Position numbers: made by a program | Part shown: positions 1-6,000 of the stretch, one piece after another | How positions within the stretch are numbered: position 1 is the first letter of the stretch | How the letters are laid out: the number at the start of each line of letters is the position of its first letter | DNA from: Armatimonadota bacterium | GTDB lineage: Bacteria; Sysuimicrobiota; Sysuimicrobiia; Sysuimicrobiales; Humicultoraceae | Length of the DNA: 31,583 nucleotides | Direction of reading: 5' to 3' | Assembly: GCA_037446215.1 (NCBI GenBank) | Contig: JBBIJB010000019.1 | Span: forward strand, 1 to 31,583

Positions 1-3000
1 GCACGTCGCGCCTGACCACCGAGCCCGCCCCGGTCACCGCGTCGCTTCCCACGCGCACGGGCGCTATGAGCATCGTGTCGCTGCCTATGAATGCGCGGTC
101 CTCTATCACGGTGTGGTGCTTGGCCCGACCGTCGAAGTTGCAGGTGACGGTGCCGGCGCCGATGTTGACCCTCTCCCCGACGGTGGCGTCCCCCAGGTAG
201 GAGACGTGATGGACCTTCGTGCGGTCGCCCACGGTGACGTTCTTCATCTCGGCGAAGTTGCCCACCTCCACGAACCTGCCGAGACGCACGCCGGGCCTCA
301 GGTGGCTGTAGGGGCCGATGCGGCTGTCGTCGCCGACGGTGCTGGAGGTCACCGTCGAGGCGACGATCGTGACGCGATCGCCTATCTCGGCGTCGACGAG
401 GCGGGCCGAGGGGCCGATCGTGCAGCCCTCGCCTATCGAGGTGTCGCCCTCCAGGATCGTGCCGGGGTGGAGCGTGGTGTCCGGGCCTACCCTTACGCCC
501 GCGTGTACGTACGTCGCGCCGGGATCGACGATCGTCACGCCGGCCTCCATCAGGGCGTCCAGCAGGCGCGCCCTCACGGCGGCCTCCGCGCGCGCCAGCT
601 CACCGCGGCTGTTGATGCCGGTCGTCTCCTGGCTCGACGCCGCCACGACGGCGGCCACTGTGTGGCCGGCGCCCAGCAGCACTCCGATTGCGTCGGTCAG
701 GTAGTACTCGCCCTGGGCATTGCCGGGCTGGATCGCTGCCACGGCCTCTCGCAGGGCGCCGCACTCGATCGCGTACATCCCCGCGTTGACCTCCCTGACC
801 TCGCGCTCCTCGGGCGTCGCGTCCGGCTCCTCGACTATGCGGCTGACGTTGCCGCGTGCGTCCCGCAGCACCCGCCCGTAGCCGGCGGGGTCGTCGCGGA
901 GGTCGGTGAGGATCGTGGCCGCCGCGCCCTGCGCCCGGTGGTGGGCCACGAGCGTTTCAACGGTCGCCGGCCGCAGGAGAGGGACGTCTCCGTAGACTAT
1001 CAGGACAGTGCCGGCGTAGCCCTCGAGGAGGGGAAGCGCCTGGGCCACCGCGTGTCCGGTACCGAGCTGCTCCTCCTGGACGGCATACCTCACGCCCTCG
1101 CCCAGCGTCGCGCGCACACGGTCGGCGCCGTGCCCGACCACGATCACGGGCGACGCCATGCCCACTGCCGAGAGGGTCTCCAGCACGTAGGAGATGATTG
1201 GCCTTCCGCAGATCGGGTGAAGCACCTTGGGAAGGGCAGAGACCATCCGCTTGCCCTTGCCCGCGGCCAGGACGACCGCCTCGATCTCTCTCATCCCTGC
1301 TGCTCCTGTGAAGACGCGTACTTCCTCATGGAGTTCTGTCGCGGCGCAGGTATTCCTTCGGGACGATCTGGCCGATGAGGTGCGCTGGCTGGGGGGCCAG
1401 GATTCGAACCTGGACTAGGGGATCCAAAGTCCCCCGGCCTACCATTAGCCGACCCCCCAGAGGCCTCCCCGAAGATTATCCCACCCGGCCGGCGCCTAGG
1501 CCAGGGCTATCAGATCTATCTCCACCAGCACGTCGCGAGGGAGCCGGGCGGCCTGCACCGTGGTGCGCGCCGGCGGAAGCTCGCGGAAATAGCCGGCGTA
1601 CACCTCGTTCATCGCTCCGAAGTCGTTCATGTCCTTCAGGAAGACCGTCGCCTTGACGACCCTGTCCATTGAGGAGCCCGCGGCGTCCAGGACCGCGGCC
1701 AGATTCTGCAGCACCCGGTGGGTCTGTGTCTTGATGTCTGTGCCGTGAACCTGCCCGGTGTCGGGATCCAGCGGCGTCTGACCGGAGAGGAAGAGCAACC
1801 CGCCGGCACGGATCGCGTGTGAGTACGGGCCGATGGGCAAGGGCGCGCCTTCGCTACGAACCACCTCTTTGGACATCTCTACCTCCTGCTTGCGGGGATT
1901 GCCGGCCGTGGCGCCGCGTCACTGCTGCGGCTTGTCCAGCAGGCGCATCAGAGCGGTTCGGAGCTCCGTCGGCGCCCGCTCGCCCAGGCACTTCTGACGG
2001 AGCACCTCCCGCAGCCTGCGCTCGAAGCCCGCATGGTCGCGGCAGTCGAGGCAGTGCTCGATGTGCTCCTCGAGCTCGCCGGCCGCCGCCTCGTCGACCT
2101 CGCCGTCGAGGTAGCTCCACAGTTGCTCCAAGACCTTGTCACAGTCTATGTGGCTCATCAGGTTCTCGGCTGTGCGGACGGTCGTTCCCCGTCCGTGTAG
2201 CCCGCCCTCCTGGCATAATCCCAGAGTAGCCGCTGAAGATGGCGACGCCCCCGGTAGAGGCGCGACATCACCGTGCCGATAGGGATGTCCAAGATCTCCG
2301 CGATCTCCTTGTAGGAGAACTCCTCGAGGTCGGCCAGGATGACCGCGGCCCGAAACGGCTCGGGCACTTGCTCCAGCGCTGTCTTCACGTCCGCGTCCAT
2401 GATCTGGGAGAGCAATATCTCCTCAGGATCCCCCTGGCGCCTGTAGTCGTCGCTCTCGCGGACCTTGGCGTAGAGGTAGAACTCGCCGACGTCATCGTCC
2501 TCCACCGTCTCCGGCTCCCGCTTCGAGCGGCGGTAGGTATCTATGTACGCGTTCATGAGGATCCTGTACAGCCAGGCGCGCGCGTTCGTCCCATCCTGGA
2601 AGGTGTGGAACGACCGCCAAGCCCTCATGAACGCCTCCTGGACCAGATCCTCGGCCGAGGTACGGTTGCGCGTGAGCCGCAGCGCCGCACCGTACATGCG
2701 GTCGATGTGCTCTGTGACGAGGGCCTCGAACCGCTCGCGGTCCTCCCCGGTTGCTGCGACTTGTGGATGCTCACGGCTCAAGACCGCACCGCCTGCCCGC
2801 ATGTCCAGTACAACCGCGCGGCTGCCCTAGACATTCCGGATTCGCCGCCGATCTCCCTTTCGGGTCCGGGCCTTCGCCCGGGCGGAGGAGTCGGCGGCCT
2901 GCTCGGTGCCGGCCCCGAGATCCGCCAGGGTCAGCATGTCCAGGGCGCCCCTTGCCGCCGCCTCTATCGCCCTCCAGACAGGGCGAACCCCGCACTCCGA

Positions 3001-6000
3001 AGCGTAGTCGCACTGGGGGGCCTCTCCTCCCGCGCACCACCAGGGCGCTATCCCCCCCTCCAGGGCCTCGAACGCCTCCCGCAGGGTTATCTCGGCCGGG
3101 GGCCGGGCCAGGGCGTGACCGCCCGAGGGCCCACGCTTGCTGATCACTATGCCGGCCCGGCGCAACACTGCCAGGAGGCGCTTGAGGTAGGGCTCGGGAA
3201 TCCCCTGCCGATCCGCGATCCCGCCGCTGTGCGCCATCCCTCTCCCGTGCCTTGCGGCGAGATCAAGCAGCGCGCGGAAACCGTACTCGGCGCGGGATGA
3301 TACCTTCATCGAGTGATGAGCTCCTCCTCGCGAATCGCGCCGTCCCGGATCCAGAAGGCCCGGACCACGGCGTCCTCGGCGGCGCCGGAGCCGGGCAGCG
3401 AGACGATGACGTGCACCGCGTCCGGGTAGTACGCCTGCTCGACATCCCTGCGCGAGGGATAGGCCTGCGACCGCGTATGGGAGTGGAAGATGGCCAGCAT
3501 CTCCCACCCCAGTGCCGCGATACCGTTGAATATGCGAAGTTGGTCCTCCGGATCGAGCAGGAACGTGTAGGGCGAGGGCTCGGCGTTGGCGCCGCGAAAC
3601 AGCCCTTCGACGCGCCCCTCCCTACCCGCCAGAATGCCGCAGCACTCGTTGGGGAAGGCGTCGTGGGCGAGCTCGACCATTAGGGAGCGCAGACCTGTCG
3701 AGAGAACAAGGGCCACATGCGCAATTATACACGACCGTGCCTCGGGCCCGTCCGGGGCGCCCGGTGTGCCCTCGCCTACTCGTCGTAGAGGACAGTGGCC
3801 TCCGGGTACCGGCGCACCCGGTTGTCACGCAGCCGGGCGCGAACCAGCTCGTCCAGCCTGGCCTGCTTGGCCTCCTGGGACTCCGTCGAGCGCAGGACGG
3901 CCAGGTCTATGTTGACGCGCAGGGCCCGCTGGGGAATCAGGTGGCGGCTGATCCCTGTCGGCAGCTTCAAGGGCAACAGGGACGCCGCCCGGATGTCGTT
4001 CTTGGTGAACTCAGGGAAGCGCACAACAGCCGCGGCCCGCTCGTAGGCGGCCAGGAGCGGCGCGAGGTCGCCGGGCGGAACCCGGTAGATGGCGGTCCGG
4101 CCTCTGTACGCGGCGACGACTCGCACCACCGCCTCGATCTTCTCCGCCAGGCCGCCGGGCGAGGCGATGCCGAGCGCGCCCTCGGCCGTCACCAGGCCGC
4201 AGGCCGTCTCGCCCGAGGCTAGGCCCTCGTCCAGCGCCTCTTCGGAGAGGGGTGTCCAGGGGAGATCGCCGTGGCTCGTGAGCAGCAGCTTGAGGCCGTC
4301 TTCGAGCAGCAGATGCGCCCATACGTCGAGCCTCAGGGCGGGATCGTCGTAGTCTACGACCTGCGCGAGCTGGTGGGGAGCTCCCGAGAGGCCGAGGGCT
4401 GTCACCCTATTGGCTCCGTCGAGCACCACGTGGTTGAGCGAGTCCACGGGCGCGACGATCGGCGGGTTGCGCAGGATCCCGTCGGCCCTCATCGACTGGG
4501 CGAGCCGCCCCGTGCGGACGGGGTCGCACTCCTCATGAAGCAGCAGTGAGGAGGTCGGCACTATCCGCAGGTCTGGAAGCTTGAGATCGGAAGAGCCTGC
4601 TGATGCCTCGGTCAATTCCATCACCTCGTGCCCGCGGGCTCCCCGTCGGAGCCGCGCAGGAGTGCCTCCACCCGCTCCAGGGAGACTCGCTCCATCTCGA
4701 CTCGGAAGAGGCGGCCGAACTGCTTCGGGTACTCCACCCTCACAGGCCGCATCTCCACCCGTCTGCCAAGCACCTCGGACATCGATGTGACGGGGCGCCC
4801 GAGCCCGCAGGGGTCTATGAGGGAGAAGCCGCTGGTGTCAGGATGCACGTTGAGCGCGAAGCCGTGCATCGTGACCTTCCGCTTTATCGCCACCCCCACA
4901 GCGCAGATCTTCGCCCCGTCCACCCAGACTCCCGGGTAGCCCTTGGCGCGCGTGCCCCGGATCCCGAAGACCAGGAGGGTGCGGATTACCGACTCCTCCA
5001 GGGCGTGCATGTATGCCGCCACGTCTTCCCTAAGCGGCGCGAGGCCGACGACCGGGTAGCCGACCAGTTGGCCCGGAGCGTGGTAGGTGGCGCTCCCGCC
5101 CCGCTCGACCTCGAACACCTCCACCCCAAGCGAGGCCAGCTTCTGCTGGGTCGCGATCACGTGCAGCGGGCTGCCGCTGCGCCCGATCGTGATCACCGGG
5201 GGGTGCTCAAGCAGCATCAGCAGATCGGGCACACTACCCTCCTGCCGGGCCCGGAGGAGCTCTCGCTGAAACGCCCAGGCGCGCGCGTAGGGAACCGGCG
5301 CCTCGTCGAGGTCCAGCAGCCAGCCCTTTGAAGCCGTCCCCTTCCGGCCCTCCGGGCCAAACGGTTCCATACGGGCAGAGTACCAAAGCGCGCCCGGCCC
5401 AACAACCCGCGGGGGCAGAGGGCTTTGGGAGGGGCACGGTCGAACTCTACAGGCGGCGGCAGGTACAATCGACGGCATCTGTCCGGAGCCGGCACGATGA
5501 GCATCCACGACATCTACAGGGCCGAGCGCACCGAGATGTACCTGAAGGCGGTGTACACGATAGCCCTCACCGACCCCCCTGTGACGAACGCCAAGGTCGC
5601 GGAGTACATGTGCGTCGCCGCCCCCTCGTCTCACGAGAAGTTGAGGAGGCTCGAGGCGCAGGGGCTGCTGGCCTCCGGCGCGACCGACGGCTACCGGCTG
5701 ACGCCGGAGGGCCTCGCGACCGCGGTGAAGGTCGTCCGCCGCCTGCGCCTCGCCGAGCGGCTGCTCACCGACATACTGCGGATGGAGATCGCGCACGCGC
5801 ACAGCGAGGCGTGCAAGCTGGAGCACGTGATCAGCCGGGAGGTCGAGTCACGGCTGTGGGAGGTACTGGGGCACCCAGCCACCTGCCCGCACGGCCTGCC
5901 GATACCCGGGGACAGGCCGATCTCGGTGGAGCTCCTGCCCACGCTGGACCAGATCGGCGTGGGCGCGCGGGCCGAGGTCGCCAGCATTCCCGAGCGGGAT

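Follow-up and report, generated by a model that had tools for sequence, protein, structure and literature searches.

What does a putative free-serine kinase supply in a bacterium whose locus lacks the cysteine synthase found beside this gene in its relatives? The question is posed by contig JBBIJB010000019.1 (positions 1-31,583; this whole stretch of 31,583 nucleotides is called the window) of an Armatimonadota genome that is 91% complete. A minus-strand gene at 3776-4624 encodes a 282-aa protein with the SbnI/SerK fold. Its start is overlapped by the stop of lipB (4621-5370, minus strand), an octanoyltransferase gene (TIGR00214, 148 bits against a cut-off of 83.55). On the other side a 59-nt gap (3717-3775) occupies the place where comparison with the relatives' loci puts cysM, and it is followed on the same strand by a Mec-like JAB/JAMM peptidase gene (3306-3716; PF14464, E 5e-20) with an intact E...HSH-x7-S-x2-D motif, an Rrf2 regulator gene (2827-3309), an ECF sigma factor gene that is conserved downstream of rrf2 (2158-2802), a zf-HC2 anti-sigma factor gene (1919-2158) and a Rid-family deaminase gene (1496-1876; TIGR00004 above cut-off) that ends the cluster in several relatives too. 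In relatives, synteny places cysO, alone or accompanied by cgl and cbs, between the lipB and kinase genes.

A preliminary description of this DNA had proposed an operon lipB-serK-mec-cymR. The four coupled minus-strand ORFs are present, but a single operon is doubtful because a TATAAT word (3724-3729, minus strand) 7 nt ahead of the mec start codon is conserved: TATAAT, TATACT or TATTAT stands at the same -13 position before mec in 15 of 30 loci (L006-L035). This word is the probable -10 element of a leaderless mec-rrf2 transcript and suggests that mec-rrf2 has its own promoter. A sigma-70 scan of the locus that also required a -35 element returned no site, nor did a terminator scan. All 26 full-length Rrf2 rows carry a C-x7-C-x5-C triad, which points to a regulator of the Fe-S type; CymR is not known to carry an Fe-S cysteine triad. 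The name cymR was dropped, as the CymR model NF047409 scores only 72 bits where its cut-off is 195.

Several lines of evidence indicate that 3776-4624 probably encodes a free L-serine kinase that makes O-phospho-L-serine. The best sequence match is SbnI, with E 6e-13 to S. aureus 5uje over residues 18-251; a hand count of ~59 identities in ~235 columns (~25%) bears out the 26% over 237 aa given previously. In a Foldseek search with a predicted model (pLDDT 93), SbnI or SerK-type chains fill the first nine places (E 9e-18 to 7e-14). The two-domain fold is shared over its full length with SbnI of S. aureus and S. pseudintermedius (5UJE, 6NR6, 5UJD; NF033589), beyond the ParB core alone, with TM 0.69-0.75 by query length, and profile comparison gives E 7e-28 for SbnI and 6e-12 for SerK. 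The SerK of T. kodakarensis (PMC5120207; PDB 5X0B series) has the same fold, and its E30, D69, W102 and Arg-His pair align. The HE and DG.NR motifs noted before are found as H30-E31 and DGANR (69-73). E31 and D69, unchanged in 58 of 58 rows, align to E20 and D58 of SbnI, both required for kinase activity; W102, R227 and H228 are kept as well, and no variation is seen at the Trp and Arg-His positions that align with SerK.

The DG-x-H-R motif of both characterised enzymes is not found in the window protein, where N72 (Asn in at least 90% of the 58 rows) replaces a His that matters for serine binding and a His stands at the position of SbnI Phe203. Identity to the characterised kinases is ~20-25%, and the scores lie far below the NCBIfam equivalog cut-offs (56 of 350 bits for NF033589, 22 of 380 for NF053625). 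A Pfam search of the kinase returned no family match. A ParB/CTP clamp was considered and rejected, the ParB match covering only ~80 residues at E>=9e-5; CTP binding was seen for a SerK-like fusion protein in a published screen. The family comprises 419 representatives at E<=1e-30 that are currently labelled 'ParB' or hypothetical. We infer kinase activity, the phosphate donor and every other enzyme activity discussed here from homology and context.

Across the phylum, which is probably CSP1-3/Sysuimicrobiota, this context is highly regular. A kinase orthologue is present in 88 of 94 genomes and in 53 of the 54 of high quality; its universality, previously put at 34 of 34 genomes at least 95% complete, is confirmed in 30 of 30 that are also at most 5% contaminated. 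That a synthase directly follows the kinase except in this genus holds too, with cysM lying downstream by at most 200 nt in 78 of 80 kinase-bearing genomes outside the genus and 0 of 8 inside; in both misses outside, the kinase is at a contig end. The absence of serine acetyltransferase is equally well borne out, CysE (TIGR01172, E<=1e-15) being found in 1/94 genomes and 0/54 high-quality ones. The lone CysE is encoded at the end of a 4.9-kb G011 contig and could be a contaminant. A CysE hidden in the window's own genome was rejected: three weak hexapeptide matches, none above cut-off, include a GlmU-like gene. The typical cluster order is (cgl)-cysO-(cbs)-serK-cysM-mec-rrf2, in which the ThiS-type sulfur carrier CysO, usually encoded upstream of the kinase, had been overlooked. 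This carrier has a Gly-Gly that is almost always extended by a tail or a fused enzyme; it is absent from a few loci (e.g. L021, L024, L025), and a CysO-like match, paralogues included, occurs in all 86 genomes outside the genus. The phylum also has the JAMM peptidase and a MoeB/MoeZ-type activator (84 of 94 genomes).

For all five downstream PALP proteins tested the best model is CysM (TIGR01138), with SbnA scoring far lower, so an SbnA/SbnB siderophore context was rejected. The substrate loop is closest to that of M. tuberculosis CysM (3DWG), with Lys at the position of Arg220 and K or R there in the listed operon synthases. The best whole-protein matches are E. coli and Salmonella CysM, O-acetylserine users that have a basic residue in the same loop as well; phosphoserine use by the operon CysM is thus not proven. 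SerA is above cut-off in 47 of 94 genomes and therefore offers a second possible source of phosphoserine in half of the phylum; 11 high-quality genomes have the kinase and an adjacent cysM with no SerA above cut-off.

The likeliest pathway for most of the phylum is one in which the kinase would convert free L-serine to O-phospho-L-serine, a MoeZ-type enzyme would charge CysO to its thiocarboxylate, CysM would condense phosphoserine with thiocarboxylated CysO, and Mec, which probably also trims CysO after Gly-Gly, would release cysteine. Such a route would replace CysE in most of the phylum. For the phylum, the earlier proposal that cysteine comes from free serine through O-phosphoserine is thus stronger than stated; it does not carry over to the window's own genome, where CysM and CysO are absent.

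The genus of the window appears to have dismantled this pathway. Operon CysM, intact CysO and SerA above cut-off are each found in 0/8 of its genomes, and relocation of cysM or cysO elsewhere was rejected, neither being found in the genus genomes. The four ThiS matches in this genome are either beside aldehyde-oxidoreductase-like and Moco genes or part of a MoaD-MoaE fusion. Between the aminotransferase gene and serS, serA is cleanly missing in this genome and in four of five others of the genus, the fifth being cut off by a contig edge; an assembly gap was rejected, as the aminotransferase stop lies 2 nt from the serS start. The remaining synthase-family gene, g01301 on contig C51, had been called CysK-like, a designation that fails: it reaches 280 of 351 bits for TIGR01139 on its PALP part, and its best PDB match is Fn1055 of F. 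nucleatum (5B53; E 2e-116 over 332 residues), the next distinct protein giving 2e-68. Unlike Fn1055, g01301 has a Cys-rich C-terminal extension of ~30 residues. Fn1055 is described as converting cysteine and water to serine and H2S, is named a serine and cysteine synthase in the title of a cited reference, and works on cysteine and serine in their free form, phosphoserine not being a known requirement. Given the loss of cysM, cysO and serA and the Fn1055-type nature of g01301, the locus is no longer a complete cysteine operon, and the title 'cysteine operon' is wrong for this genome. The Fn1055-type enzyme gained in the genus could plausibly convert serine and sulfide to cysteine, and back, in a direct reaction.

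The kinase itself is under purifying selection in the genus, with a median dN/dS of 0.25 (0.28 and 0.26 in genera that carry CysM), equal to that of lipB. As the only phosphoserine source found there, it most likely feeds TrpB2 in indole salvage. The window encodes a stand-alone TrpB2 at 10281-11654 (minus strand; TIGR01415, 649 bits against a cut-off of 518.85), 5.7 kb upstream of the kinase and outside its operon; it is the sole TrpB found in this genome, where TrpA was not found. In PMC11917138, citing Busch 2014, the TrpB2 family is described as using phosphoserine, not serine; that a serine kinase supplies a bacterial TrpB2 is something we infer here. TrpB2 occurs in seven of eight genus genomes, one copy partial, and is the only TrpB match in five. 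Genus member G033 (95% complete) has an intact kinase and TrpB1 only, and in family f4, where the kinase is present, TrpB2 is above cut-off in just 1 of 23 genomes. A phosphoserine-dependent TrpB2 is nevertheless the likeliest sink in the genus, and the kinase possibly also feeds serine catabolism via the retained class V aminotransferase. Mec may have been kept to open the MoaD-MoaE fusion, which is present in all eight genus genomes and is a plausible other substrate.

Taken jointly, a serine kinase, a CysO/CysM/Mec feed in the phylum, and an Fn1055-type swap with a TrpB2 sink in the genus form the reading that we favour with somewhat better than even confidence. The kinase might instead still serve cysteine synthesis in the genus, with g01301 taking phosphoserine and sulfide as a stand-in for CysM. 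The C51-type gene occurs exactly where CysM is missing (7/8 genomes against 0/86 elsewhere), the kinase stays conserved there, and T. kodakarensis pairs SerK with a CysK that uses free sulfide; yet g01301 is nearest among solved proteins to an enzyme acting on cysteine and water, such genes keep GISDEF in 7/7 cases, the loop reads HRIQGI and not the GLKH of operon CysM, and the gene is never near the kinase; we give this reading little weight. It is unlikely that the kinase mainly interconverts serine and phosphoserine, replacing SerB where SerA exists and starting serine assimilation elsewhere, with cysteine as a side use. A role of this kind is proposed in GapMind 2026 (PMC13759103) for SerBK/DUF1015, a remote bacterial family of the SbnI fold that is separate and lies beside serA/serC, whereas the window kinase has no Pfam match. 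SerB is found in 0/94 phylum genomes, so a reverse role is allowed, although SerB goes unrecognised in many bacteria (6 of 14 controls). SerA-like dehydrogenase fusions make up 9 of the 13 longer homologues tested, an aminotransferase plus serA-serK locus exists among homologues, and the aminotransferase is retained at 79-83% identity in all five genus genomes searched. Within the phylum, however, the kinase gene is coupled to cysM rather than serA, the genus retains it without serA, and GlyA in the same five genomes means that serine has another source.

It is quite improbable, in our judgement, that the gene product is no serine kinase but a related nucleotide binder that acts on a different substrate or has a regulatory function in this sulfur/redox cluster. 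The His-to-Asn change and low identity would fit it, as would the second role of SbnI as a regulator, the description of its homologue EdeB as an activator and the varied contexts of the family outside the phylum; the full-length two-domain match to SerK/SbnI rather than ParB, the invariant catalytic Glu/Asp, Trp and Arg-His positions and the repeated fusions of homologues to serine-pathway enzymes argue against it. That the genus kinase is a decaying remnant of the former operon is barely credible: its partners are lost, G028 and G029 have broken second copies and the window copy sits on a long branch (0.41), but the main match has no internal stop in any of the eight genomes (one is cut by a contig end), its dN/dS is the same as for lipB and for genera that have CysM, and a -10-like TAGGAT word lies 6 nt 5' of the kinase ATG in six members.

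Relative to known systems, the favoured reading describes new wiring and not new chemistry, each part having a characterised relative. SbnI belongs to a siderophore cluster, whereas relatives of the window kinase are encoded with cysM, cysO and mec. The T. kodakarensis SerK-CysK route likewise runs from serine through phosphoserine to cysteine without CysE; that SerK comes from an archaeon and depends on ADP, and no protein sulfur carrier is described for the route, whereas the window gene is bacterial and its relatives are coupled to CysO and Mec. Makino 2016 (PMC5120207) reported no clear bacterial SerK homologues. With the M. tuberculosis mec-cysO-cysM system and MoeZ (3DWG; PMC3227635) and the type 4c/4d operons of Iyer 2006 (PMC1779556) the relatives share a Gly-Gly ThiS-type carrier, a CysM-type synthase whose residue at Arg220 is basic, a JAMM peptidase and a ThiF-rhodanese activator. 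Those descriptions include no serine kinase, the phylum's CysO, unlike that of M. tuberculosis, carries a tail at its C terminus or a fusion to CBS or the kinase, and the window's genus lacks counterparts of the carrier and synthase. A serine kinase wired to CysO/CysM/Mec was found in no paper of the literature searched. We propose, tentatively and at well under even confidence, that the phylum joins an archaeal-style kinase to a ubiquitin-like carrier cut from a precursor or polyprotein by a JAMM peptidase, and that one genus swapped to Fn1055-type condensation of serine and sulfide while keeping the kinase for TrpB2 salvage. If true, this would close the gap in cysteine synthesis of a widespread uncultured phylum without CysE, assign a role to a family that has no Pfam entry, and widen the known range of serine-kinase-dependent cysteine synthesis from archaea to bacteria. 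The genus would be a natural experiment in pathway replacement, making testable whether Fn1055-type enzymes act as cysteine synthases in biosynthesis and what supplies stand-alone TrpB2 with phosphoserine.

A related-loci search returned five distant loci only, and homologues at ~40% identity lie in unrelated cell-wall clusters. CysO-kinase fusions occur among database proteins and in none of the loci examined; ThiS fusions of kinase homologues account for 8 of 120 proteins among the matches listed, and one of the 13 longer homologues has a JAB fusion. A genome in the Chloroflexota sample carries cysO-rhodanese-mec-moeB-serK.

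The 282-aa ORF at 3776–4624 (minus strand) gave zero matches in a Pfam search and scored weakly against the models for SbnI (56 of 350 bits) and SerK (22 of 380 bits), and a sequence search matched it to S. aureus SbnI at E 6e-13. A profile built from 58 homologues (54 from 120 listed proteins, the query included, and four of five related loci) reaches SbnI at E 7e-28 and SerK at E 6e-12 over nearly the whole length, and the top nine Foldseek matches of the predicted structure (pLDDT 93) are all SbnI and SerK-type chains. In the profile alignment, E31 and D69 fall opposite SbnI E20 and D58, reported as needed for kinase activity (PMC9641203); W102, R227 and H228 align with SerK W102, R224 and H225 and are invariant among the 58 homologues. 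Whereas SbnI and SerK carry a His in the DGxHR motif, the family described here has Asn in its place, a genuine difference from the two enzymes that have been characterised.

The ORF lies on the minus strand between a predicted lipB (4621–5370) and, by domain match, a JAB peptidase gene (mec, 3306–3716) and an Rrf2 regulator gene (2827–3309). ECF sigma, zf-HC2 anti-sigma and Rid genes follow in that order, and a tRNA-Gln(TTG) (1386–1459, minus strand) separates the Rid gene from a GlmU-like gene. Divergent from lipB, and similarly placed in other loci of the genus, is a DtxR/MntR-type regulator with a FeoA domain (5497–6168, plus strand). The Rrf2 protein had been labelled CymR, a name we drop because it fails the CymR model; C-x7-C-x5-C occurs in all 26 full-length rows (25 genomes).

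We compared 94 genomes of the phylum, which form one order of seven families, an arrangement that together with the NCBI labels of database homologues makes CSP1-3 (PMC11962464) the probable identity of the phylum; the counts take in unpublished genomes G017 and G025, on the latter of which one fusion row (L123) rests, and no conclusion depends on these. The kinase gene was found in 88, and in a tree of 70 rows the 44 phylum rows occupy one side of a 100/99 branch, following families. The preliminary description placed a cysteine synthase directly after the kinase and reported serine acetyltransferase as absent, and both observations hold: of 80 carriers outside the window's genus, 78 have a CysM orthologue that begins no more than 200 nt downstream (best-scoring as CysM in 5/5 tested), and CysE occurs in 1/94 genomes. 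That single CysE (L081, G011:C121) sits at one end of a contig of 4.9 kb, together with genes for GTP cyclohydrolase I and a proteasomal ATPase, and is possibly contamination. Most loci have a ThiS-type gene (PAMAGG) upstream of the kinase, and the PALP gene found upstream in some genera is a cystathionine beta-synthase (CBS) preceded by a cystathionine lyase/synthase. From these positions, the near-absence of CysE and the presence of a MoeB/MoeZ-type enzyme in 84/94 genomes, we read the cluster as (cgl)-cysO-(cbs)-serK-cysM-mec-rrf2, which resembles the mycobacterial CysO/CysM/Mec route (PMC3227635, PMC9547175, PMC12910592) with the addition of a kinase that would supply its substrate.

CysO-like matches at E≤1e-12 occur in 86/86 genomes outside the genus, paralogues counted. 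SerA is over cut-off in 47/94 genomes, and 11 of 54 high-quality genomes have the kinase and adjacent cysM without it; a SerB search returned 0/94. In the operon CysM, the substrate loop best matches the M. tuberculosis CysM/CysO structure 3DWG, with a Lys opposite Arg220. Since the protein compared over its full length has enteric CysM as its nearest match, its use of phosphoserine is, judging by sequence, likely and not more. At one locus (L060, G039) a rhodanese gene, two unannotated genes and a cupin gene are inserted between cysM and mec.

Only one of the 39 CysO rows, several of which represent the same genome twice, ends exactly at Gly-Gly; the others have tails of 1–25 residues or run in-frame into CBS (16 rows, 15 genomes). 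Nearly all free copies have such a tail. In-frame fusions through Gly-Gly were seen at L035/L055, L061, L071 and L122–L133; twelve of the CysO-CBS regions were picked because equal open-frame lengths hinted at fusion, so that their count is no frequency. CysO-kinase fusions make up 8 of the 120 database homologues listed (P0007, P0012, P0014, P0021, P0041, P0042, P0063, P0067). Because carrier function needs a free C-terminal Gly-Gly, the precursor must be cut, and Mec may be the protease, by analogy with JAMM cleavage of MoaD-MoaE (PMC8832034).

The window's genus (eight genomes) departs from this pattern. As proposed earlier, the operon's own synthase is gone (0/8 genomes, best matches 42–48% or weaker); CysO and SerA over cut-off are also found in 0/8. 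The gene on contig C51 that had been called CysK-like is nearest to 5b53 (Fn1055; E 2e-116), an enzyme described as converting cysteine and water to serine and H2S (PMC9865163). It occurs in 7/8 genus genomes, the miss being a 73% complete genome, versus 0/86 others; as the genus genomes are kin and not independent, the exchange of CysM/CysO for the Fn1055-type gene counts as a single replacement event. The proposal that cysteine comes from free serine through O-phosphoserine is supported for the phylum but not for the window's genome, and this genus-level replacement of the cysteine route is what the window adds. The serA gene is missing between a class V aminotransferase gene and serS in the window's genome and four of five other genus genomes searched; the order aminotransferase-serA-serS is found in G001, G083, G086 and G090. 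At L096 (G000, C18:21510–23932) the aminotransferase gene is followed directly by serS. Because relatives carry serA between the two, this aminotransferase could be a non-canonical SerC. In G028 (L079, G028:C141) and G029 (L080, G029:C293) there is a further locus where cgl and cbs accompany a broken copy of the kinase gene, joined in G028 by a shortened cysO; it looks like a decaying ancestral copy. The second G028 kinase is sister to six genus sequences, with which the window's own sequence, not resolved in the 70-row tree, does not group.

Median dN/dS of the kinase in the genus is 0.25 (simple Nei-Gojobori, pairwise, 21 pairs among seven loci), beside 0.23 for lipB and 0.28 and 0.26 for the kinase in CysM-bearing genera. 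TrpB2 is our leading, still tentative, candidate for the main sink of its phosphoserine. TrpB2 enzymes take phosphoserine (Busch 2014, cited in PMC11917138), and the window encodes one over the family cut-off, 5.7 kb upstream of the kinase on the same strand. Of the eight genus genomes, seven have it (in one as a partial gene), and in five, where no TrpA was found, it is the sole TrpB match. In all 32 cases with both genes on one contig, trpB2 lies upstream on the same strand, 4.6–98 kb away, which is loose synteny and no operon. However, G033 carries the kinase but no TrpB2, a TrpB1 operon occurs in G028, G032 and G033, and one family (f4) mostly lacks TrpB2. The C51 enzyme and serine catabolism are equally unlikely as the main sink, and some other use is less probable still. 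A MoaD-MoaE fusion (C49:15417–16088), in 8/8 genus genomes, is an alternative candidate substrate for Mec, and the presence of the JAB gene by itself therefore argues only weakly for cysteine synthesis.

Outside the phylum, the family occurs in 22 of 251 sampled Chloroflexota genomes. Two have mec-moeB-serK, one of them also with cysO and rhodanese upstream, and no cysteine synthase lies within the stretches read at these loci; another has an aminotransferase gene with a serA-serK fusion. Three Chloroflexota loci (L001, L004, L005) place the homologue in a FemAB/HAD cell-wall cluster, after genes for HEAT-repeat, FemAB and HAD proteins, and two of them also have a Mur ligase close by; there it may supply phosphoserine to a cell-wall precursor. 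Of the 13 longer homologues tested, nine are joined to a 2-hydroxyacid dehydrogenase and one to a JAB domain. SerA-like-kinase, aminotransferase-linked and JAB-kinase fusions were noted in other lineages (L104/L139 of G289; P0187, P0242, P0259, P0269, P0149). These varied contexts and fusions support a serine/phosphoserine function with several uses.

The full-text literature searched, which leaves most subscription papers and supplements outside, nowhere places an SbnI/SerK kinase inside a cysO-cysM-mec cluster or makes one the supplier of a bacterial TrpB2, and PMC12800425 adds nothing on the subject. In their available text, Makino 2016 (PMC5120207) reports that SerK has no clear homologues among bacteria, Iyer 2006 (PMC1779556) tabulates ThiS-JAB-cysteine synthase operons and nowhere mentions 'ParB', and a PNAS ParB survey names only SbnI and SerK. 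The DUF1015 of GapMind 2026 (PMC13759103), as presented there, is a different family.

A TATAAT-type word (3724–3729) lies 7 nt 5′ of the mec start, as likewise in 15 of 30 loci compared, and is absent from the six other genus loci. Similar −10-like words 6–7 nt ahead of start codons, at lipB (5377–5385) and at the kinase of six genus members (L009, L011–L015), suggest together with that of mec that these transcripts are leaderless.
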